In this document: in pieces, positions 52,722 through 64,000 of the stretch
Layout: every line of letters begins with the position of its first letter
How positions within the stretch are numbered: the first letter of the stretch is position 1
The notes under the pieces: generated by a model
The model's database searches: none
The model's input: the letters and a program-made list of their open reading frames with translations, nothing else
Told to the model about the DNA's origin: nothing
Position numbers and translations under genes: made by a program
Origin: a plasmid
Sequence record: CP132210.1
Strand: one strand, 5' to 3'
Length of the DNA: 64,000 bases

Positions 52722-53678
52722 ATGGCTAGAAAATTAGTTGAGTTTAACGATGTAGCGGCAGCAGCCCAAAAGCTCAAGGACGCCGGTAAACGCCCCACTG
52801 TCATCGCAATCAGGGACCTCCTTGGTAAGGGGAGCTTCACCACCATTTCGACATACCTCAAGCAGTGGTCAGAGGAACACTCTCTCGATGAAGAGCCGGT
52901 TGAGGTTGTCCTGCCAGAATCAGTTATGAGCGATGCAGAGCTATTCCTGCGGAAGATCTACACGGTAGCGAAAACAAGCGCCGATGAGCAGCTTGAGCGC
53001 GAGCGTGAACAGCTACGACAGAGAGAGCTTGAGTACCAGGAAGACATGCAGCAAGCCGTGGACATGGCAAATGATGCCACCGAACGGGCTGAACTACTGG
53101 AAGAGCAGCTTGAATCTCTCACCAACAAAAAAACAGAGCTCGATGCAGCCCTTGGTAAGGCAGAAAACTCGCTATCCCTCAAGTCTGCTGAGCTGGCCCG
53201 AGCACAGGATCGCTTGGAGCAGGCTGAAAGTGAAAATCGCTCTTTGAGCCAAAAATTGGCAACTACAGAGGGTGAGTTGGCATTGCAAAAAGGCAAGAGT
53301 ATAGAGCAGACAGAAAAGCTCCGGGCAGCTCAGGAACAAAGTACATCCCTAAAAGAACAGCTCGAAAATGCACAGGCCAAACTGGCCCAATCACAGGACT
53401 CCCTTGCCACGGCCAAAGCTCATGGCGAATCTGCTGAACGAGAGTGCCAGCGCCTATCTGGAGAGGTAGAAAAGCTGGAAACCAAACTGTCCAGCGCCGA
53501 AGCAGAAGCTCGCTCTCTTGTTCAAGACAAAGGCATGATCGCTGGTCAGTTGCAGGAAAAAGACCAGCAGGCCAAGAGCCTCGAACAAAGACTGACTGAT
53601 GCGCTGACCAAAATTTCTGGGTTGGAGCAAGAGCGAATTAAAGCTGGTGGGGGAGAGAAAAAGAAAGAGGAAAACTGA
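52722..53678 (+). CDS. kfrA: KfrA-like plasmid protein (N-terminal winged-HTH DNA-binding domain plus long Ala/Glu/Gln-rich coiled coil), 318 aa
   Basis: MARKLVEFNDVAAAAQKLKDAGKRPTVIAIRDLLGKGSFTTISTYLKQW, followed by heptad-rich LEQ/AEA repeats. Confidence 0.7.
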   Translation: MARKLVEFNDVAAAAQKLKDAGKRPTVIAIRDLLGKGSFTTISTYLKQWSEEHSLDEEPVEVVLPESVMSDAELFLRKIYTVAKTSADEQLEREREQLRQRELEYQEDMQQAVDMANDATERAELLEEQLESLTNKKTELDAALGKAENSLSLKSAELARAQDRLEQAESENRSLSQKLATTEGELALQKGKSIEQTEKLRAAQEQSTSLKEQLENAQAKLAQSQDSLATAKAHGESAERECQRLSGEVEKLETKLSSAEAEARSLVQDKGMIAGQLQEKDQQAKSLEQRLTDALTKISGLEQERIKAGGGEKKKEEN

Positions 53679-53956: not shown

Positions 53957-55476
53957 GGGGCCTCATGAAGCAACTTCCTCGTGACACACCAGAGCAATCG
54001 CTGATCACTCAGTACAAAGGATCTCGCCTTGTCGTTAAGGCCTATGCTGGCACGGGCAAAACCACCACACTGGTGAAATACGCTCATAACAACCTCGACT
54101 CTCGCATCCTCTATCTGGCATACAACCGGGCCATCCGCGATGAGGCCAGAGAAAAATTTCCTGCAAACGTTGACTGCAAAACGTCCCACCAGCTTGCCTA
54201 CGCCACTATAGGAAGGGGCTACCATCACAAACTCACAGGCAACCTAAGACTCACCGATATTGCTCAAGCGGTTAATACCAAAAACTGGACGTTTGCCAAA
54301 GATATTCTCGACACACTCAACGCCTTCATGTGCAGTGCAGATATGCGGATTCTTTATACGCATTTTGCTCGTGCCGATACAGGCAAGGTACTTACATCCA
54401 AACAGGAGAGATACCAAATCCAGGTAGTCGAAGGTGCAGAACTGATATGGAAGCGGATGACCAACCTTCAAGATCCGTTCCCGACCGTACACGACTGCTA
54501 CCTCAAACAGTATCAGCTCGGGATGCCGAATCTGTCTCGTCGGTACACCACCATTCTTTTTGATGAGGCCCAAGACGCCAACCCGGTCACAAGCAGCATC
54601 GTCCTACAGCAGAAATGCAAGGTAATCCTGGTTGGAGATCGCCACCAGCAGATCTATAGGTTCAGAGGTGCAAACAACGCTCTTGATAGCAAAGAGCTCA
54701 TGAACGCCGACCAACTCTATCTCACGCATAGCTTCCGCTTTGGCCCCAACGTGTCGCTGGTGGCAAACGCCCTTCTTGAACTCAAAGGCGAAACACGCCC
54801 TGTGGTTGGCCGGGGACCGGCAGATCAGGTAGTCATGTTCTTGCCTGGTGATGTCGGTCATCGCGCAATACTTCACCGAACCGTCATGGGTGTTATCGAG
54901 ACAGCGCTCTCTGCGACTGAATCCGGATCACAAGTGTTTTGGGTTGGTGGCATCGACGCTTATCAGATCAATGAGCTCCAGGATTTGTACTGGTTCTCGA
55001 TGGCCGAGCCAGACCGTGTAAAAAACAAGAAGCTGCTTGATGAATATGAAGACTACTTTGAGTATCAAGAAGTAGCGAAGGCCACCAAAGATCCTGAGAT
55101 GATGAGGGCCGTCAAGATCATCAATAGCTATGATGAAATCCCTGAGCGCCTCACCACTCTTCGACGTAATACAGTCAAAGAAGAATTTGGGGCCGACATT
55201 ACAGTCTCAACAGCTCATCGGTGCAAGGGGTTAGAGTGGGACTTTGTTCAGCTCTATGACGATTTTCCGGATGTCCTGGACCCGGAGCTCGACCCAATGG
55301 CCCGAGACGATGAAATAAACCTGCTCTACGTCGCATCCACAAGAGCGATGCGAATCCTCGCGTTAAATAGCGCGGTTGAGATGGTTATCCGCTATATCAC
55401 CCAAAAGCGCATGGTCGAGAAGCAGATGAAGATGGCCGCAATGGCAACAGAAGTTGAAGGGAACACGACCAAATAG
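53944..55476 (+). CDS. UvrD/PcrA-like superfamily-1 DNA helicase, 510 aa
   Basis: Walker A AYAGTGKTT, Walker B ILFDEAQD, and C-terminal helicase motifs TAHRCKGLEWDFV and LLYVASTRA. Confidence 0.75.
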   Translation: MLVVGGLMKQLPRDTPEQSLITQYKGSRLVVKAYAGTGKTTTLVKYAHNNLDSRILYLAYNRAIRDEAREKFPANVDCKTSHQLAYATIGRGYHHKLTGNLRLTDIAQAVNTKNWTFAKDILDTLNAFMCSADMRILYTHFARADTGKVLTSKQERYQIQVVEGAELIWKRMTNLQDPFPTVHDCYLKQYQLGMPNLSRRYTTILFDEAQDANPVTSSIVLQQKCKVILVGDRHQQIYRFRGANNALDSKELMNADQLYLTHSFRFGPNVSLVANALLELKGETRPVVGRGPADQVVMFLPGDVGHRAILHRTVMGVIETALSATESGSQVFWVGGIDAYQINELQDLYWFSMAEPDRVKNKKLLDEYEDYFEYQEVAKATKDPEMMRAVKIINSYDEIPERLTTLRRNTVKEEFGADITVSTAHRCKGLEWDFVQLYDDFPDVLDPELDPMARDDEINLLYVASTRAMRILALNSAVEMVIRYITQKRMVEKQMKMAAMATEVEGNTTK

Positions 55477-55487
55477 TTTGGTCAATT

Positions 55488-55503
55488 CTTTCACATGTGA
55501 AAG
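55488..55503. repeat. 16-bp perfect palindrome CTTTCACATGTGAAAG abutting a TTGACA -35 element upstream of traF
   Basis: The identical palindrome recurs at 62177-62192. Confidence 0.6.
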
Positions 55504-55586
55504 TTGACAAATAAAACGCTCAAAGCGCCCTAAATGGGCGCTTACACCTGCCTAATTTCACGCCGCCCACCTCTACCATATCGAGC

Positions 55587-56627
55587 ATGGGAAAATACGT
55601 GCGTGAGACTATGAAAAGATCACCTTTGGATTTACTGCTCCTTGCAGCGCTCACGCTAGGGGCATCACACCAGGCTTGGGCTCAAGATGGCACAAGATCT
55701 GGCTTTTATGAGCGCAAAGAAGAGGGTTGGTTCTGGTACAAGGAAGAACCAAAAGAGCCGGAGAAGAAGCCAGAAAAGCCCAAACCAAAGCCTGTGCCAG
55801 AGGCGAAGCTAACACCGCCGCTGCCTGCTGCTCCGCTACCAAGCGGTCCAGAAATGTTTTCGGCAGAATGGTTCCGGGAAAACTTACCCAAGTACAAAGA
55901 CCTTGCCTGGGACAATCCTACCGTTGAAAACGTCAGGACGTTTCTCTACTTGCAGAGATTTGCGATAGATCGCTCTGAACAGTTTTCCGATGCTACAGAG
56001 CTGGCGGTTGTGGGTGATCCGTTCCTGGATGAGATCACTCGACGTCCTGCGGCCACATTTGCCTCACAACAGGTTGATCGTGACGCCGGTAATGCCAAAA
56101 ACAAGCTGCTAAAAAGCGTAGCCGACCGAGTGGGAATATTCTTCTTCTACAAGTCCGACGATGAATACAGTGACTTGCAAGCACCGCTAATCAAGATGCT
56201 TGAACAAGGAGAAGGCTTCTCGATCATTCCAGTTTCTATGGACGGCAAACCTCTCCCGAACGGGCTTTTCCCCCACTACAAGACCGATGAAGGCCATGCC
56301 AAACAACTTGGCATTGTGACCTTCCCTGCTGTTTACCTCGCATCTCCAGACGGTCAGTTCGCACCTATAGGACAAGGACCAATGTCTCTTCCTGAGTTGA
56401 ATCACAGGATTTTGGTCGCCGCAAAACGCAACGGCTGGGTCACAGACGAAGAGTTCAATCGTACACGCCCGGTACTCAACCTAGAAAACAACATAGCCGA
56501 ACGCTTGGCCTCACCAGAGCTGGGCTCTGACCTCAAACAGTTATCCCAAGCGAGCGGTGATAAAGACAACTTTGTGCCACCGGAGCAACTCATGAAGTAC
56601 ATCCGGGAAAAATTACAGGAGAACTAA
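55587..56627 (+). CDS. traF: F-type conjugative transfer protein TraF (thioredoxin-fold pilus assembly protein), 346 aa
   Basis: Signal peptide, a Pro/Lys-rich linker, and C-terminal TraF-like thioredoxin-fold region. Gene order traF-traH-traG. Confidence 0.65.
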   Translation: MGKYVRETMKRSPLDLLLLAALTLGASHQAWAQDGTRSGFYERKEEGWFWYKEEPKEPEKKPEKPKPKPVPEAKLTPPLPAAPLPSGPEMFSAEWFRENLPKYKDLAWDNPTVENVRTFLYLQRFAIDRSEQFSDATELAVVGDPFLDEITRRPAATFASQQVDRDAGNAKNKLLKSVADRVGIFFFYKSDDEYSDLQAPLIKMLEQGEGFSIIPVSMDGKPLPNGLFPHYKTDEGHAKQLGIVTFPAVYLASPDGQFAPIGQGPMSLPELNHRILVAAKRNGWVTDEEFNRTRPVLNLENNIAERLASPELGSDLKQLSQASGDKDNFVPPEQLMKYIREKLQEN

Positions 56628-56628
56628 G

Positions 56629-58062
56629 ATGGTCACGCACAAGACTGTAAAAAGGAGCCTGCTTGCCCTGAGTGTAGCGGCTACTCTCTTCATCGCCCCG
56701 ACAGAGGCAATAGCCGCTAACGGACTCCAGTCTCAGATGGATAAACTCTTCAATGAGATGAGCAACACAACACCACCAGGAGTTTATGAAAGCCAACGGC
56801 GTGGCGTTCTAGCTGGTGGCCGGTTCACTGCCAAGACTCGACTCTTTGACGAGAACCTAGTTAGCCTTGCCCCACCATCGTGGAAAGCTGGTTGTGGGGG
56901 CGTCGATCTGTTCGGCGGCTCTCTTTCCTTCATTAACGCAGATCAAATTGTCCAGCTCCTCCGGGCTGTCGCAGCAAACGCCAAGGGATATGCCTTCCAG
57001 CTTGCGCTCGACAACGTTTTTCCGGACGGAGCCAAGTGGATAGAGAACTTCCAGAAGAAAGTACAAGCGCTCAACCAACATCTGGGCAATTCCTGCCAGC
57101 TCGCTCAAGGTTTCGTGAACGACCTAACCAGTGGCATGGATCTCAAACACAAAACTGATGCTTCCATCACCGCTACAACATCCGGCCTGTATGAAGATTT
57201 CTTCGGATCCAAGCAGGAAACCAGTGGCAAGAGTCCCCTAGAGGAACTGAAAGCTAACAAGCCTGACGAATACAACAAGATGATTGGCAACATCGTCTGG
57301 AAGCAACTCAAGAGCAACAACGCCAATACTTGGTTTCAATACGGGGATAACACGCTGCTTGAAGCGATCATGTCTTTAACCGGCACAGTCATCATTGGTG
57401 ATCTGGTAAACGACCCGAACTCAACCGGCTCGGGGGCGAAAACAACGCCTCTGACAACCTTACCAGGCAACAAGATCACCTTGTCAGACCTGATCTCGGG
57501 CGGTTCTGTTGAGATCTATTCATGTGATTCTGATACGACCAACTGCCTGAGTGCTGGCACCAGCAATAAAACTGTCGTGCTCAAAGGCATCAAGAACCAG
57601 ATCACCGACATGCTGTTAGGAACCAGCTCTACACCGGGCGTCATCTACAAATACGCAACGAACTCTGGAACCTTAACCGATCCAGAAAAGGCCTTTGTTT
57701 CTAACCTCCCTGGAGGCATTGGCACCATCGTTCGTAACTTGTCTGTCCTTTCACAAGATGGCGCAAACCTGTTCGCAACAGAGTCATCGGGAGCGATTGC
57801 ACTGACGATGATGTATAGCTTCTCGGAAGAGTTTTTCCGCGCAGCTCGCATTGCAATGGCTAATAGCAAGTCGCCCTACAAGAAAGAGGCGCTGGAGCTT
57901 CTCGCCCAATCGCAACAGCAAATCCGTGATGAATACACAATCTTGTCCTCTCAATATGGCGATCTATCAAGCCAGATTGAGAAATACAACAACCTCCTGG
58001 ACAACATCCGCAAGCAAAAATACATGCTCGCAACTTTGTCTAACCCTCCTAGCACGAACTAA
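56629..58062 (+). CDS. traH: F-type conjugative transfer pilus assembly protein TraH, 477 aa
   Basis: Signal peptide. Resembles the TraH family in size, composition and position. Confidence 0.65.
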   Translation: MVTHKTVKRSLLALSVAATLFIAPTEAIAANGLQSQMDKLFNEMSNTTPPGVYESQRRGVLAGGRFTAKTRLFDENLVSLAPPSWKAGCGGVDLFGGSLSFINADQIVQLLRAVAANAKGYAFQLALDNVFPDGAKWIENFQKKVQALNQHLGNSCQLAQGFVNDLTSGMDLKHKTDASITATTSGLYEDFFGSKQETSGKSPLEELKANKPDEYNKMIGNIVWKQLKSNNANTWFQYGDNTLLEAIMSLTGTVIIGDLVNDPNSTGSGAKTTPLTTLPGNKITLSDLISGGSVEIYSCDSDTTNCLSAGTSNKTVVLKGIKNQITDMLLGTSSTPGVIYKYATNSGTLTDPEKAFVSNLPGGIGTIVRNLSVLSQDGANLFATESSGAIALTMMYSFSEEFFRAARIAMANSKSPYKKEALELLAQSQQQIRDEYTILSSQYGDLSSQIEKYNNLLDNIRKQKYMLATLSNPPSTN

Positions 58063-58074
58063 GGGGCCATTGGA

Positions 58075-61000
58075 ATGGGAGCTTTTTCAATCCACTCTAT
58101 CGGTGACTCTGCTTTTCTGGAGCAAATCCTGATTGCAGTATCAATGATCACCGGCACCGGAGACTTCGAGAAGATGGTCAGTATTGGCCTGCTTCTTGGG
58201 ATCTTGATGATCTGTATCCAGTCCGTCTTTCAAGGCGCGAAGCAAATCAATATCCAGCAAGTGCTGGTAGGTTGGATCATATATGCCTGTTTCTTCGGCC
58301 CGACCACAACGGTGACTATCGAAGACGCTTACACAGGGCAGGTCCGAGTCGTCGCCAATGTGCCTATTGGAGTAGGCTTTGCTGGTGGTGTCATATCTAA
58401 CGTGGGATACACCATCACCAATTTGTTTGAAACTGGATATGGCGTAATCGTACCCAATGTCACGGAAAGCCACTTCTCAGAAACACTGAAACTTTTGAAT
58501 GACGTTAGACGGCGGGCCTATGACACCGGGGTTTTCACTGCGCTTAACTCAGCAAATGGTGGCGGCTATGTTGACGTAAGACGTTCCTGGAACAATTACA
58601 TCCGGGAATGCACATTAACCAAAGTTGATCTCAACCTAATGTCCCTTGATGAGTTGATGAATCGTTCAACCGACACGGCTTTGCGGTTCAACTCTCAGCT
58701 CTACGGAACCCGGTTGTATTTGTCCACATCCAACCCTGACGGCACTGACTACACATGTACCGATGGATGGGTGGCTATTAGCACAGCAACTGCCAACCTA
58801 AGCAGCCCGGTTGTTGTTGATGCTCTAAACAGCCTGCTGGGTATTGACACATCAACCGGAGACAACGCTCTAACGAAGCTGACTGATTCGCTTCAAGCGA
58901 TGGGTGCCACAACCACCTCATCAATCGACTACCTGAAAGCCGCCGTTCTTGAGCCTCTCTATTATGAGGCCGCAGCAGGACGTTATCAGGACCTCCAGGA
59001 CTATGGCTCTGCATTGATGATCAACCAAGCCATTCAGCAACGGAACACGCAGTGGGCCGCAGAACAGTCGATGTTCATGACCGTTGTCCGACCAATGCTG
59101 ACATTCTTTGAGGGGTTCATTTACGCTATCACCCCGATCATTGCTTTTATTATCGTGATGGGCAGCTTCGGCATCCAGTTAGCCGGTAAATATGTACAAA
59201 CCATCCTCTGGATTCAGCTATGGATGCCAGTCCTCTCAATTATCAACCTGTTTGTTCATACCGCCGCGTCAAATGAGATGTCTAGCCTCAGTGCTGGAGG
59301 TCTCAACTCCATGTACGCGCTTTCCTCAACTGGAGATGTGCTGCAACACTGGATTGCAACCGGCGGCATGTTGGCTGCGGCCACTCCGGTAATTTCCCTG
59401 TTTATCGTTACAGGTAGCACTTATGCCTTCACCAGCTTGGCATCGAGAATAAGCGGTGCTGACCACGTTGACGAAAAGATGCAAACGCCAGATCTACTCA
59501 AGCAAGGTCCGGTTATGCAAAGTCAGCCAGCATACAATCACAACCAGTTTAGTGGTGCGATTGCGAACGGCGCAGAAAGCATGATCAGCACCTTCTCGCT
59601 TGGCTCCACTCTGGCATCAGGTGTGAGCTCCGCACAGGCATTACAAAGCCAGAAATCGGAGGCCTTCCAAAGCACCCTCGGTCGAGGTTTTTCTGATGGA
59701 GTAAGTCAGGATCAAGCCTACTCAAGACTCTCCAATGTTGGGCGCAACGTTTCGTCTCAAAGCACAGCTCAGAGCCAATTGGTCAACCAACAAGCCAAGA
59801 ACTTCATGGATAAGTTCCAAGTGGATGATAGCCACTCTGATGCGGTCAAAGGTGCTTTTGCCATGCAGGCTATGGGCACTCTCGATGCTGACGAAGCGGC
59901 TTCCATGCTTATGCCTATGGTTGGTAAGGTCAGGGCGGCAATGAAGGGGGCCGCTGGTATTAAATCAAACAGTACAGCACTTGTTCCTACTGGTGGTGAT
60001 GGCGAATCAGGCGATGTGCTGGACATCAAAGCGCAGGCGAAGGGGGCAACAGAGTCCTCAGCTCAAGACTCCTCAAGCTGGTCAGCAAGCGATGTGTCTC
60101 AGTTCATGAAGGGTGTGAGTTATTCACAAACCGATAGCCAAGCGTTGACTAATCAATTGGCACAGGGTTTTAGTCGTTCCGGTAGCGAGTCGTTTAAGCA
60201 AACCTGGGGGGATAGCTTATCCCAGAACCTGTCCAAGTCGGCCTCTGAACTGGTGTCTGCATCCGACACCTTCACAACAATGAGCCAACTCCAGAATCAA
60301 ATGGGCTCCATGACTAACACCGACTTTAAAACTCTCGGTGGTGCAGTGGCACAAACCCCTGAGGCCATGAATCAACTGAATGACTATTTCCGAAATGCCG
60401 CGCCGCAGTCGGTTAAAGACGAGGCTGCTTCACTACAGCAAAGATACCAAGCCTACGGAATGTCGCCTCAGGTGGCTCAAGCAGCAGCTCGAATGACAGC
60501 AATGACCAACTCCAAAAACTATGATCCGGGTAAGGAGCTTGGCGGGTATCAAGCTGCACTACAGGCAATCAATACTGCGTCCGGGCGCAACGGATCCTTT
60601 AGTGGTGACGCCTACGGAAATAGCGGCATTGAAGGCCCGAATGTTCAAGGTCTACCAGGTCAGGTTCAAGGTGCTGTAGGCAGTGGACCTAATATCCCAA
60701 CCGGATTCAGAGATAATGTGGCTGGGATGGCTGGAACTAATCCGGCATCCGAAGCAGGCCAGTTACCAACGAACAGCCCCCTTGTTCAAAATGAACATGC
60801 AGCAGGTACATCAGCTCTTCACAACCTGGCGCAGCAAACAGAGCGAAACGTAACTGCTCCCGAACTCAAAAAAGCACAAGATAACCTCATTAACTCGCTT
60901 CCGGAGATGTCTTGGAGCGCTTCGGCATGGGGGGCGTGGGATAACTTCAGTGACAAGATGGGCCGCAGAGCTGAACAAGCAGGCGGGGCTCTCATTGCTG

Positions 61001-61680
61001 GTGGTCAGGCTGGCGCTGATGCGTTCTCACAAGCAATGGATCAAATGAGAACGATGACGCCTGAGCAACGCGACCAATTCGTCGCGGCAACTCAACGCGG
61101 CGATCAGGCAGTCAAAGAAGAGTTTGGCTGGGCCGGGGGCGCGATGGTTGGAATGGCTAAACTTGGCCGCAACGTCATGGGTGCTGCTGCAAGCGGCTAT
61201 AGTGCAGCCAAAGAATGGTTAAGTGGTAAATCAGACCTATCAGAAGCCGCTAAAGGGATGAGCATGGAGGAACGCGGTGCGTTCTATGCAGCCGCGTTAT
61301 CCTCTGCCGCAGAAGCCGGTGGTGGAGCAGCACAACAGTTTATGAACCAGTATGGCGATGAGTTCAAAGAGACAATGCAGTCAATTGCTCAAAACCGCTA
61401 TGGACTTACTCAAGGGCAAGCTGCTGTTTATGCTGAGTCTTTTGATACAAACGAAGGCCGCATGAACCAGGCAATTCAGAATCTGAAAATGGAATATGCA
61501 GAACGTAATCCGGATGGTTCACCGATGACGCAAGGTGGTCAGCCTGTTCTTTCTCAGCAAAACGAAGAGTTCGCTGACAAGCTGGTAAACGTATTGCAGA
61601 ACTCGACGGGAGCTGGAGACCGTTCGGGGAGTTATTTGACTGCTGTCAGAGGGTACAACATAGCAAATCAAAGGTTCTAA
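58075..61680 (+). CDS. traG: F-type conjugative transfer protein TraG (mating-pair stabilisation; N-terminal polytopic domain plus large periplasmic C-terminal domain), 1201 aa
   Basis: Multiple N-terminal transmembrane segments followed by a long Ser/Gln/Ala-rich domain. Position after traF-traH. Confidence 0.7.
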   Translation: MGAFSIHSIGDSAFLEQILIAVSMITGTGDFEKMVSIGLLLGILMICIQSVFQGAKQINIQQVLVGWIIYACFFGPTTTVTIEDAYTGQVRVVANVPIGVGFAGGVISNVGYTITNLFETGYGVIVPNVTESHFSETLKLLNDVRRRAYDTGVFTALNSANGGGYVDVRRSWNNYIRECTLTKVDLNLMSLDELMNRSTDTALRFNSQLYGTRLYLSTSNPDGTDYTCTDGWVAISTATANLSSPVVVDALNSLLGIDTSTGDNALTKLTDSLQAMGATTTSSIDYLKAAVLEPLYYEAAAGRYQDLQDYGSALMINQAIQQRNTQWAAEQSMFMTVVRPMLTFFEGFIYAITPIIAFIIVMGSFGIQLAGKYVQTILWIQLWMPVLSIINLFVHTAASNEMSSLSAGGLNSMYALSSTGDVLQHWIATGGMLAAATPVISLFIVTGSTYAFTSLASRISGADHVDEKMQTPDLLKQGPVMQSQPAYNHNQFSGAIANGAESMISTFSLGSTLASGVSSAQALQSQKSEAFQSTLGRGFSDGVSQDQAYSRLSNVGRNVSSQSTAQSQLVNQQAKNFMDKFQVDDSHSDAVKGAFAMQAMGTLDADEAASMLMPMVGKVRAAMKGAAGIKSNSTALVPTGGDGESGDVLDIKAQAKGATESSAQDSSSWSASDVSQFMKGVSYSQTDSQALTNQLAQGFSRSGSESFKQTWGDSLSQNLSKSASELVSASDTFTTMSQLQNQMGSMTNTDFKTLGGAVAQTPEAMNQLNDYFRNAAPQSVKDEAASLQQRYQAYGMSPQVAQAAARMTAMTNSKNYDPGKELGGYQAALQAINTASGRNGSFSGDAYGNSGIEGPNVQGLPGQVQGAVGSGPNIPTGFRDNVAGMAGTNPASEAGQLPTNSPLVQNEHAAGTSALHNLAQQTERNVTAPELKKAQDNLINSLPEMSWSASAWGAWDNFSDKMGRRAEQAGGALIAGGQAGADAFSQAMDQMRTMTPEQRDQFVAATQRGDQAVKEEFGWAGGAMVGMAKLGRNVMGAAASGYSAAKEWLSGKSDLSEAAKGMSMEERGAFYAAALSSAAEAGGGAAQQFMNQYGDEFKETMQSIAQNRYGLTQGQAAVYAESFDTNEGRMNQAIQNLKMEYAERNPDGSPMTQGGQPVLSQQNEEFADKLVNVLQNSTGAGDRSGSYLTAVRGYNIANQRF

Positions 61681-61697
61681 AAGACCGTTCAAATAAT

Positions 61698-61724
61698 AAG
61701 GGGGCCATCAGGCCCCCTTATTCG
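61698..61724. terminator. bidirectional rho-independent terminator (AAGGGGGCC atca GGCCCCCTT followed by ATTCG)
   Basis: GC-rich 9-bp stem between convergent traG and the 120-aa ORF. Confidence 0.7.
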
Positions 61725-62080
61725 TCTCCAGTCCCAATATGGTAGCGCTGGTCAAAATCATAGGAGTTTTGAAATCCACCAGCATGTTTTTTTCTGTGCC
61801 GAATTGGCGGAGCTTCTTTATATGCTGACCGCGCAGCACCGATAAACCATGTTAGCCCAAACAGAGCCCCGACAGCCAAAGCAACTTGCCACTGGAAGTA
61901 AGCGATCCCTCCCCAGAAGATAACAGCAGCCCAAATACTTCTGTGAATGAAAAACAGGAAACGAGCCCCCCAAACGGCGAAAGGAGCCAGGGCAACACCA
62001 AGCCCCCAAGGTGTATCAGCCATCATAGCGACCCCTAGAAGCACAACACCCAGCAGAAGAATATTGACCACATGTTTCAT
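61718..62080 (-). CDS. small integral membrane protein, 120 aa
   Basis: Four predicted hydrophobic helices (MKHVVNILLLGVVLLGVAMM...). Confidence 0.45.
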   Translation of the reverse strand: MKHVVNILLLGVVLLGVAMMADTPWGLGVALAPFAVWGARFLFFIHRSIWAAVIFWGGIAYFQWQVALAVGALFGLTWFIGAARSAYKEAPPIRHRKKHAGGFQNSYDFDQRYHIGTGDE

Positions 62081-62176
62081 ACCATCCCCCTTATTATTTA
62101 CCTCCAGTCTACCACGGCATCAAAAAATGCAACCGTGAATGTTCGTCGATTTTTATGGTGAAAGTTTGCTCTTAAA

Positions 62177-62192
62177 CTTTCACATGTGAAAG
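62177..62192. repeat. second copy of the palindrome CTTTCACATGTGAAAG (extended dyad AACTTTCACATGTGAAAGTT), next to a second dyad TGAAAGTTT..AAACTTTCA
   Basis: Direct reading. Confidence 0.6.
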
Positions 62193-62632
62193 TTAGCCAG
62201 TGCGTAATAGGGCATTTGTTGACAAAGCATTACATAGTTGAACACGTCAATCAGATCGCATACACTATCAAATAGGCCATTGCTAACGCTTTGGTCCCTA
62301 TCTGCAACACCGCAGAGTTACCTCCCCCAAATATCTCGCATTGTAAAAACCATCATCTTTGTGTGGTCGGGGCGCATCTTTGCCCACCCTACCCTCATCA
62401 GCTCCTGCTGTATTCGCAATTCCAGCCCTCGCTGTATACCCAAAACCACTTATACCTAAACGCTATTTACTTATCACAAAATAACACACTTTCCGTGTGC
62501 TATTTCCGCCATTCATTTGGCGCACCTTCCATTTCTATCGAAAATCAATCGTATCCCTTTGATTCCTAAAAGTATTGTAACTTTGTTCTACCGGTACAAA
62601 GTTAAGTGTATGTTTTTAAAGGTTTTTTATTG

Positions 62633-62661
62633 TTGACAGCATCATTATTCGGGCTTATAAA
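62633..62661 (+). promoter_or_regulatory. sigma70-like promoter (TTGACA-17 bp-TATAAA) about 100 bp upstream of the Ner-like gene
   Basis: Consensus hexamers with optimal spacing. Confidence 0.55.
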
Positions 62662-62764
62662 GGCGCAAATTGTGTCAGTTTGTGACAATAAAAGAACTCT
62701 AAAAGCGTTCATTAAGTAACGCAGTTTTTGTACGGGCAATAACGCAGTTTAAAGGTGGCAAGAA

Positions 62765-63037
62765 ATGGACAAATGCCAGGTGATAGACATCCCAAGCGAC
62801 CTAGAAAAAAAACGCGAGTGGATCAAGTACAGGCTCAAGATCCAGGGTCTTTCTCTGGCCGCACTGGGCCGAAAACACAAAACATCTCGTCAGGTGGTGT
62901 CAACGGCACTCTACAAGCCCAGTCCACGCTGGGAGCATGAGATAGCGACAGCTTTGGGTATGAAGCCTTCTGAGATATGGCCGGAGCGGTACGACGAAGA
63001 ACACGAAATACCCCTCAGACATAAGGAGGCAAGCTGA
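62765..63037 (+). CDS. acr1: Ner/Nlp-family HTH regulator (Acr1-like repressor of IncC plasmids), 90 aa
   Basis: Ner-like HTH ...KIQGLSLAALGRKHKTSRQVVSTAL... Confidence 0.6.
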   Translation: MDKCQVIDIPSDLEKKREWIKYRLKIQGLSLAALGRKHKTSRQVVSTALYKPSPRWEHEIATALGMKPSEIWPERYDEEHEIPLRHKEAS

Positions 63038-63360
63038 TGAAGAACAAAGCCAAAGCGTTGGTTCTGTCTGCGGCAGTCCTGTCATCAGCGGCCAATGGCA
63101 TTGACCTGAGCGGAACCGTCTTCGACAAAGCGGCGAAAGCACATAACCTTGATCCTCTTCTGGTGTATTCGGTCGCACTGGCTGAATCTGCATCAGGGAG
63201 AGGTAATGGCTCTATAAGTCCTTGGCCTTGGACGCTGCGCGTTCCTGGACTCCCTTTCTATGCAAAGTCGGAAGACCAGGCAAAGGCTAAGCTCGCGGAG
63301 TTTCAGCGTTACGCATTTTACGCTGCGTTTTGCCCCGTGCATCATCGAAGAAATTCTTGA
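63037..63360 (+). CDS. 107-aa ORF occupying the flhD/acaD position. It has a signal-peptide-like N-terminus. Identity uncertain.
   Basis: MKNKAKALVLSAAVLSSAANG... It lies between the Ner-like and FlhC-like genes and is not recognisably FlhD to me. Confidence 0.3.
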   Translation: MKNKAKALVLSAAVLSSAANGIDLSGTVFDKAAKAHNLDPLLVYSVALAESASGRGNGSISPWPWTLRVPGLPFYAKSEDQAKAKLAEFQRYAFYAAFCPVHHRRNS

Positions 63361-63429
63361 TAACAGCCGGGAAGAGTTAACACACCCAGTATTGAAAAAA
63401 TTGCAACAGTCTCTACAGGGACGTGGGAG

Positions 63430-63987
63430 GTGGAGATGAACATTGGCAACTCAGGTACATTGGGTCGCTGGGTTACAGCTCGACACATGGCTCTTGCTGG
63501 GTACATCACAAAAATCATCATGATCGAGACAGGCCTGACCTACAAACAGGTCAGGCGGCTTTACCAGGACCTAGAGAGGGACGGATATTCTCTGGAACGA
63601 AAATCCAGAACGTTCCGTGGTGGTGCGACACTTATTCATAGTCACACATCCAAGATACAGGCTTCTCTTCTAATGCAGCTCTACTTCAATATTGGTGGGG
63701 AGGCAGTGTTGCGATCTGTGAACATCAAAGCCTTGAACAAGGCATTCAGAATGTATCACGCAATCCGCAAAGAAGTGCCCGGAATGAAAGGTGCCCGGTG
63801 GGCTCCATTCGATATTACTGATGCCTGGTGTCTTGCTTCGGAGTTGAGAAGCGGGGATGCGATGCTGGAGGTGTGCGATAATTGCAAGTGTACTTACTTC
63901 ACCTCTGTTAACCAAAGAACCTGCGTAGAATGTCCGTTTTGCAAGGAACAAGGAAAGAGTGGTGGTGGGGAGAAGGAGTGTGCTTGA
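63430..63987 (+). CDS. acaC: FlhC-like transcriptional activator (AcaC-type master activator of transfer genes), 185 aa
   Basis: N-terminal FlhC-like helix region and a C-terminal Cys cluster CDNCKC...CVECPFC (zinc ribbon). Confidence 0.65.
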   Translation: MEMNIGNSGTLGRWVTARHMALAGYITKIIMIETGLTYKQVRRLYQDLERDGYSLERKSRTFRGGATLIHSHTSKIQASLLMQLYFNIGGEAVLRSVNIKALNKAFRMYHAIRKEVPGMKGARWAPFDITDAWCLASELRSGDAMLEVCDNCKCTYFTSVNQRTCVECPFCKEQGKSGGGEKECA

Positions 63988-64000
63988 GTAGACTATGACA

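Follow-up and report, generated by a model that had tools for sequence, protein, structure and literature searches.

The traF region and its repeated palindrome

The window, i.e. the whole 64-kb stretch of plasmid DNA analysed here (CP132210.1), ends in 12 kb of IncA plasmid backbone (about 51.6-64 kb), which is 100% identical to pR210-2-VIM and shares approximately 90-95% identity with IncC plasmids. A resistance island makes up the first ~51 kb, and its arrangement sets the window apart from CP132325.1. The backbone part carries the traF-traH-traG operon, a UvrD-helicase gene, an ortholog of the entry-exclusion gene eexC and the probable acr1 promoter (Table 1).

The window contains exactly two copies of the 16-bp palindrome CTTTCACATGTGAAAG, and they bracket traF-traH-traG, just as the first-pass annotation had reported. 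Identity between the two copies runs to 18 nt (CTTTCACATGTGAAAGTT); past about 22 bp the flanks of different copies are unrelated. With up to 3 mismatches allowed no further match was found in the 64-kb window, where 0.22 would be expected by chance. Only two copies are seen here because the first ~51 kb are resistance island. Copy 1 lies 9 bp past the stop codon of the UvrD-helicase gene, and the annotated ATG of traF (55587) follows 84 bp after the palindrome. Copy 2 lies 96 bp from the start codon of the eexC ortholog.

Table 1. Features of the traF-acr1 region (window coordinates; strand "." for unstranded elements).
Feature	Position	Strand	Basis and remarks
Palindrome copy 1, very probably parS, ATTC-TTTCACATGTGAAA-GTTG	55485..55506	.	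Exact match; 14-bp core 55489-55502, 16-mer 55488-55503
AcaCD (FlhDC-like activator) box of traF promoter, CAAAGCGCCCTAAATGGGCGCTTACACCT	55521..55549	+	Transferred from pVCR94deltaX ChIP-exo motif by alignment
PtraF transcription start, by homology	55585..55587	+	IncC 5'-RACE site mapped through alignment
traF-traH-traG operon (55587-56627, 56629-58062, 58075-61680)	55587..61680	+	ORFs and annotation of 100%-identical plasmid
Entry-exclusion gene, eexC/vcrx145 ortholog	61718..62080	-	ORF, positional IncC ortholog; named eexC in PMC10954446
Extra right-arm half-site GTGAAAGTTT	62158..62167	.	6 bp upstream of copy 2; forms "second dyad" with left arm of copy 2
Palindrome copy 2, very probably parS, AAAC-TTTCACATGTGAAA-GTTA	62174..62195	.	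Exact match; core 62178-62191, 16-mer 62177-62192
Probable Pacr1, conserved TTGACA-N17-TATAAA	62633..62661	+	Inferred from alignment and promoter hexamers

Distribution, conservation and the published parS sites

A scan of the complete plasmid, which the first-pass annotation had recommended, was conducted on pR210-2-VIM with its 100% identical backbone and found the 14-bp core TTTCACATGTGAAA 12 times without a mismatch; IncC pVCR94deltaX (NC_023291) also contains 12 copies. Core copies with 1-2 mismatches were not found in pR210-2-VIM. One of its copies (15441) is located in the parA promoter, 50 bp upstream of parA, and several of the 12 fall within ORFs. Both window copies occupy the same intergenic positions as in the IncC plasmids pVCR94deltaX and pNDM-1_Dok01, and these are also the positions of published R55 sites. 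In our alignments the core of copy 1 is invariant in IncA, in two IncC plasmids and in the Shewanella, Edwardsiella and Aeromonas relatives; at copy 2 the core together with the AAAC and GT flanks is invariant in five plasmids. At both loci the core is unchanged even where the plasmid flanks fall to 71% identity. The repeat is non-random, as had been claimed from the window. A chance repeat, or the functionless remnant of a mobile-element end, might fit the mere two copies in the window, but the 12 exact copies per plasmid, without near matches in pR210-2-VIM, and an invariant core whose surroundings are unrelated beyond about 22 bp, make this explanation scarcely credible.

The repeated palindrome is real and functional; it is, however, already known. 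Among the papers searched, a single one contains the exact core: Muranyi, Szabo, Acsai and Kiss (2024, NAR 52:2498; PMC10954446) described TTTCACATGTGAAA within a 22-bp repeat, AAAC-core-GTTT, as parS of IncC and IncA plasmids, with 7-14 dispersed copies per backbone, one of them in the parA promoter. Their sites beside a DNA helicase gene (R55_170) and eexC (R55_174) correspond to both window positions. Purified IncC ParB shifts the eexC site in EMSA, and this IncC ortholog of copy 2 is a perfect 22-bp site. The parA-promoter site is also bound by ParB in vitro, and binding is lost when 4 bp are inserted at the centre. Because ParB does not bind the bare 14-bp core, the flanks matter; in the right arm a G and a T are highly conserved and needed for binding. 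A parS-bearing replicon is stabilised by ParA and ParB supplied in trans, and partition function of a single site was demonstrated with SGI1-derived sites (all PMC10954446).

The window sites match this parAB053 system closely. Core, 22-bp inverted-repeat layout, the locations behind the DNA helicase gene and ahead of eexC, and the number of 12 copies per backbone all agree, and the important G and T of the right flank are present at both copies. Copy 1 departs in its left arm (ATTC versus AAAC), as some of the published sites do. The published work used the IncC plasmid R55, whereas the window is IncA; copy 2 ends in GTTA versus the perfect GTTT of the IncC eexC site, one flank base apart.

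The parB gene is absent from the window, whose backbone portion covers only about 51.6-64 kb; plasmids that match the window at 100% identity across 55000-64000 do carry it. IncA ParB belongs to the same family as IncC ParB and is 91% identical to it, nearly identical across residues 1-230 including the DNA-binding region. It matches Pfam ParB_N, HTH_ParB and KorB and carries the CTP-binding motif GERRWRA; among solved structures RK2 KorB is the closest (8qa8, E 1.6e-20). We infer that IncA ParB binds both window sites and works as a clamp that depends on CTP. Altogether the palindromes are very probably two of about 12 dispersed IncA parS sites bound by the plasmid ParB, and since published EMSA shows ParB binding (PMC10954446) the motif is best regarded as a partition centromere and not as an operator of transfer operons.

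Under this scenario each palindrome would form the middle of an inverted repeat of some 22 bp, AAAC-TTTCACATGTGAAA-GTTT, recognised by a ParB dimer. ParB, with its ParB_N, HTH and KorB domains, would be made from a parA-parB-053 operon outside the window, and once loaded at parS sites it would build the partition complex used by ParA to segregate the single-copy plasmid. The parS in the parA promoter would also serve ParB autorepression.

Promoter elements and transfer regulators near the two copies

The first-pass annotation had placed both copies at promoter-like sites and had read the TTGACA next to copy 1 as a -35 hexamer upstream of traF. The hexamer indeed adjoins copy 1 directly (55504-55509). 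The PtraF start was mapped by means of 5'-RACE to pVCR94deltaX 109108-109110 (Carraro 2014, PMC4207636); relative to this IncC start site TTGACA sits at -82 to -77 and is therefore not the -35 of PtraF, while the centre of copy 1 falls at approximately -90. No matching -10 was scored for the hexamer, it is not conserved in Edwardsiella or Aeromonas relatives, and it was rejected as the traF -35. TACCAT at 55575-55580 precedes the predicted PtraF start. The label "promoter-like" is weak at both copies because a sigma-70 consensus scan scored no promoter at either of them.

The palindrome had further been proposed as an operator by which a dimeric regulator, the Ner-like or the FlhC-like protein encoded just downstream, co-ordinates the transfer operons. 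One part of this proposal stands: a symmetric HTH protein does bind the motif. The binder, however, is ParB and the main role very probably that of parS. In favour of Acr1 (Ner-like) or AcaCD (FlhC-like) one may note that both copies flank the traFHG operon close to the regulator cluster, and that the motif is also found near other AcaCD-dependent promoters. Indeed, it recurs beside other transfer-related promoters and is conserved in related plasmids, the opposite of what the first-pass annotation had named as refuting an operator. It is not specific to transfer operons, though: further copies sit at the parA promoter and within ORFs that have no link with transfer, which argues against such a role.

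For AcaCD, comparison with the published ChIP-exo box (TGCCCAAAATGGGCAG..TAC) revealed no relation to the palindrome. The traF motif lies at 109044-109072 in pVCR94deltaX (Carraro 2014 Table S3, PMC4207636), and its counterpart in the window is a separate element that begins downstream of the parS core, 18 bp away, and reaches a score of 27.9 under a weight matrix derived from published motifs. The same scan found no box near copy 2, and the AcaCD-box reading of the palindrome was rejected. The AcaCD box adjoins copy 1 and three other parS copies and is likewise partly palindromic; it differs in sequence, in the protein that binds it and in its class II activator position directly upstream of the -35.

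For Acr1, the only known target is Pacr1, which was characterised functionally by Carraro 2014 (PMC4207636) and is repressed by Acr1. The conserved hexamer pair at 62633-62661 is probably Pacr1, driving acr1 (62765-63037) and the acaDC operon; it lies 440 bp from copy 2 and carries no copy of the palindrome. In acaD itself there is an apparent 750-bp loss at 63307|63308. With many copies at non-transfer loci besides, the Acr1-operator reading was also rejected. Given the direct demonstration of ParB binding (PMC10954446), control of the transfer operons by either regulator through this motif is very unlikely.

The second dyad reported next to copy 2 does exist: TGAAAGTTT (62159-62167) and AAACTTTCA (62174-62182) are separated by a 6-nt spacer. 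At this position IncC has GATTAGAATTT and an extra 30 bp. The half-site GTGAAAGTTT was absent from the alignments of the IncC, Shewanella and Edwardsiella relatives and is thus IncA-specific, and the second dyad was accordingly rejected as a conserved feature.

ParB sites, gene expression and related systems

These sites might have a dual use. In pVCR94deltaX four of the 12 parS cores precede ChIP-exo AcaCD motifs by 15-44 bp (vcrx012, vcrx036, vcrx068 and traF), and IncA keeps all four pairings, at distances of 15, 48, 42 and 18 bp. By chance 0.09 such pairings would be expected, and a value of four did not arise in any of 200,000 permutations. This pairing is non-random and hints at a KorB-type operator role, although it is suggestive only. 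In addition to its parS role, ParB bound upstream of AcaCD boxes (copy 1 at PtraF) might modulate AcaCD-dependent transcription in a KorB-like manner, a possibility worth considering but short of probable; ParB sliding from copy 2 could also reach the eex promoter and Pacr1, like KorB at RK2 OB sites. The KorB domain of ParB, and KorB as closest solved structure, point in this direction, as do the published repression of PparA by ParB and the published change in SGI1 copy number after mutation of the parS in SGI1 DR1, located 25 bp ahead of an AcaCD box. Crosstalk between ParB and AcaCD has already been raised as a hypothesis by the authors of PMC10954446. Against it, PtraF is fully activated by AcaCD alone in plasmid-free cells (Carraro 2014, PMC4207636), and ParB is therefore not required for activation; the spacing between parS and box is variable (15-48 bp), and eight of the 12 parS sites are not near AcaCD boxes.

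More tentative still, and on balance unlikely, is a general coupling, for which the four AcaCD boxes with a parS 15-48 bp ahead of them, PtraF with copy 1 among them, and copy 2 between eex and Pacr1 would provide the arrangement: a KorB-like ParB, acting as a CTP-dependent sliding clamp, would link partition status to the expression of transfer and entry-exclusion genes. If true, global control by ParB would extend from IncP-1 to a second plasmid family; this idea, too, has been proposed as a hypothesis by the authors of the 2024 paper.

The assignment as parS has practical consequences in any case. As vehicles of carbapenemase and multidrug resistance genes, IncA and IncC plasmids are of major importance, and their stable inheritance is governed by parS sites, which SGI1 mimics, expelling the helper plasmid. 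Identification of parS also provides the correct annotation of two intergenic regions and avoids their misassignment to transfer regulators.

Two other ParB systems invite comparison. KorB of the IncP-1 plasmids RK2/RP4 is likewise a partition protein of the ParB family that contains a KorB domain. Its operators (OB) are short perfect palindromes, about 12 copies around the plasmid and many of them beside promoters. The OB site of KorB is TTTAGCSGCTAAA, a sequence unrelated to the window palindrome. KorB represses promoters near to or far from OB together with a second repressor, whereas in IncA/C repression has been shown only at PparA. KorB also has KorA as a clamp-locking partner; in IncA/C no KorA-like partner has been identified, 053 being a winged HTH protein (Pfam HTH_43). 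Chromosomal parS (Spo0J/ParB), with the consensus TGTTNCACGTGAAACA, shares the half-site TTTCAC/GTGAAA and is likewise bound by ParB N-terminal/HTH-domain proteins with a GERRxRA motif. It differs in its centre, CAC-GTG versus CAC-AT-GTG with two extra central bases in IncA/C, and in its outer flanks, and while chromosomal parS sites cluster near the origin, those of IncA/C plasmids are dispersed.

The palindrome in the window and in related plasmids

Plasmid backbone makes up only the last ~12 kb of the window, and carries kfrA-like, UvrD-like helicase, traF-traH-traG, eex (minus strand), acr1 (Ner-like), lytic transglycosylase, acaD and acaC genes. Positions 55000-64000 are 100% identical to ~20 IncA plasmids, e.g. 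pR210-2-VIM (NZ_CP034084.1), and 90-95% identical to ~980 IncC plasmids. The first-pass annotation described a 16-bp palindrome occurring twice, with TTGACA abutting the traF-proximal copy (copy 1) and a second dyad beside the eex-proximal one (copy 2). Both occurrences of CTTTCACATGTGAAAG are exact, no further match with up to three mismatches exists in the whole 64-kb window (chance expectation 0.22), TTGACA adjoins copy 1 with the annotated traF ATG 84 bp past the palindrome, and TGAAAGTTT-N6-AAACTTTCA lies beside copy 2; the observation is therefore confirmed. Identity between the copies runs to 18 nt.

Features of the window and the basis of their placement
Feature	Position	Basis or remark
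Resistance island	1 to ~51,600	TnAs1, class 1 integrons, mer genes, IS26
KfrA_N-domain gene	52722-53678	
AcaCD-box match	53242-53270	within the KfrA_N-domain gene; strong, score 22.9; orthologous to vcrx140 promoter motif of pVCR94deltaX
Copy 1	55488-55503	window scan
PtraF AcaCD box	55521-55549	pVCR94deltaX motif mapped through the traF-proximal alignment
PtraF start site	~55585-55587	pVCR94deltaX start site mapped through the same alignment
Annotated traF ATG	55587	
Next in-frame traF ATG	55611	opens typical signal peptide (MKRSPLDLLLLAALTLGA...)
Segment just upstream of copy 2	62145-62175	~30 bp present in IncC, Shewanella and Edwardsiella relatives, absent from IncA
Extra parS right-arm half-site	62158-62167	GTGAAAGTTT, in IncA instead of that segment
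Copy 2	62177-62192	window scan
Imperfect 27-nt inverted repeat	62607-62633 / 62685-62711	either side of candidate Pacr1
Candidate Pacr1	62633-62661	TTGACA-N17-TATAAA, near-consensus sigma-70, ~100 bp upstream of acr1
Junction	63307/63308	exactly 750 bp of IncA plasmids absent (pR210-2-VIM 139633-140382)

Alignment partners for the window were two IncC plasmids and relatives from Shewanella (89% identity), Edwardsiella and Aeromonas (71% identity). The inner 14 bp (core) is unchanged at traF in all six aligned sequences and, together with its AAAC and GT flanks, at eex in all five. Copy 2 in IncC is a perfect 22-mer, as used in the published EMSA, and the IncA version ends in GTTA. The half-site making the second dyad is IncA-specific. 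A scan of complete pR210-2-VIM yielded 10 exact 16-mers and 12 exact cores (TTTCACATGTGAAA), with none at one or two mismatches; IncC pVCR94deltaX (NC_023291) likewise has 12. One pR210-2-VIM core lies 50 bp upstream of parA, before an operon of parA, a KorB-domain parB and an HTH gene, and the remaining copies are intergenic or within ORFs (e.g. a xerC-like recombinase gene). Likeness between copies ends at ~22 bp, the sequence farther out being unrelated.

The 750 bp absent at the junction span acaD codons 1-159 as well as the lytic transglycosylase gene's 3' portion. The junction shows no microhomology, and it is not contiguous in any of 1001 matching PLSDB records. A genuine loss would leave the master activator without its AcaD subunit and should make the plasmid transfer-deficient; alternatively, the gap may be an artefact of the data.

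Identity with the published parS

The identity of the palindrome is already known. A literature full-text search with the core returned one paper, Muranyi et al. 2024, NAR 52:2498 (PMC10954446), which counts 14 inverted repeats in IncC R55 and 10-14 copies per IncA plasmid. Purified ParB, the second ORF of the parAB053 operon, bound the eexC, parA-promoter and SGI1 DR2 sites in EMSA; it did not bind the 14-bp core by itself, and a 4-bp insertion at the centre abolished binding (PMC10954446). ParB also represses PparA, and ParA plus ParB stabilise a parS-bearing replicon (PMC10954446).

IncA and IncC ParB are 91% identical, with near-complete identity across residues 1-230, and share a GERRWRA motif. 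GERRxRA is a CTP-binding signature of ParB clamps. The IncA protein matches Pfam ParB_N, HTH_ParB and KorB, its nearest solved structure being RK2 KorB (8qa8). We identify the palindrome with the parS centromere site already published for IncA/IncC plasmids; the feature is real, functional and strongly conserved.

Transfer regulators and ParB

Two regulators encoded nearby had been put forward as binders. The FlhC-like candidate is not supported, since the palindrome bears no relation to the AcaCD consensus (TGCCCAAAATGGGCAG..TAC). In pVCR94deltaX the PtraF motif occupies 109044-109072 and the start site 109108-109110 (Carraro 2014 Table S3, PMC4207636); PtraF is silent without AcaCD (Carraro 2014, PMC4207636). 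A weight matrix built from published AcaCD motifs recovered the same, separate traF box (score 27.9) and none near copy 2. Nor does TTGACA beside copy 1 qualify as the traF -35: the hexamer occupies -82 to -77 relative to the start site mapped in IncC, no -10 element scores as its partner, and its conservation does not extend to the Edwardsiella or Aeromonas relatives. The true traF start is probably the downstream ATG, because the annotated one coincides with the IncC start site and the downstream one begins a signal peptide.

The Ner-like candidate, Acr1, represses Pacr1 (Carraro 2014, PMC4207636). The best candidate for this promoter, and probably Pacr1 itself, is the sigma-70 match upstream of acr1; it carries no copy of the motif and is 440 bp away from copy 2, which argues against an Acr1 operator. 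Single substitutions aside (TTGGCA in pVCR94deltaX, TGTAAA in pNDM-1_Dok01), conservation of this promoter is good across IncA, IncC and the relatives from Shewanella and Edwardsiella.

In pVCR94deltaX, four AcaCD motifs (vcrx012, vcrx036, vcrx068, traF) are preceded at 15-44 bp by a parS core, which accounts for 4 of the 12 cores. The chance expectation is 0.09, and 200,000 permutations never gave as many as four. All four pairings are kept in pR210-2-VIM, with IncC and IncA gaps together spanning 15-48 bp. This arrangement was remarked on earlier and ParB proposed as a possible global regulator like KorB (PMC10954446); we found no test of this in the literature searched, and regard it as a reasonable hypothesis, neither new nor demonstrated. 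The proposed operator for a dimeric regulator holds as a binding site for a dimeric protein; the suggested binders and a transfer-specific role are not supported, the published binder being ParB and copies lying at parA and within ORFs.

Canonical chromosomal parS is TGTTNCACGTGAAACA. Its half-sites, TTTCAC/GTGAAA, are the same as those at 55489-55502 and 62178-62191, whereas the IncA cores contain two additional central bases (AT).
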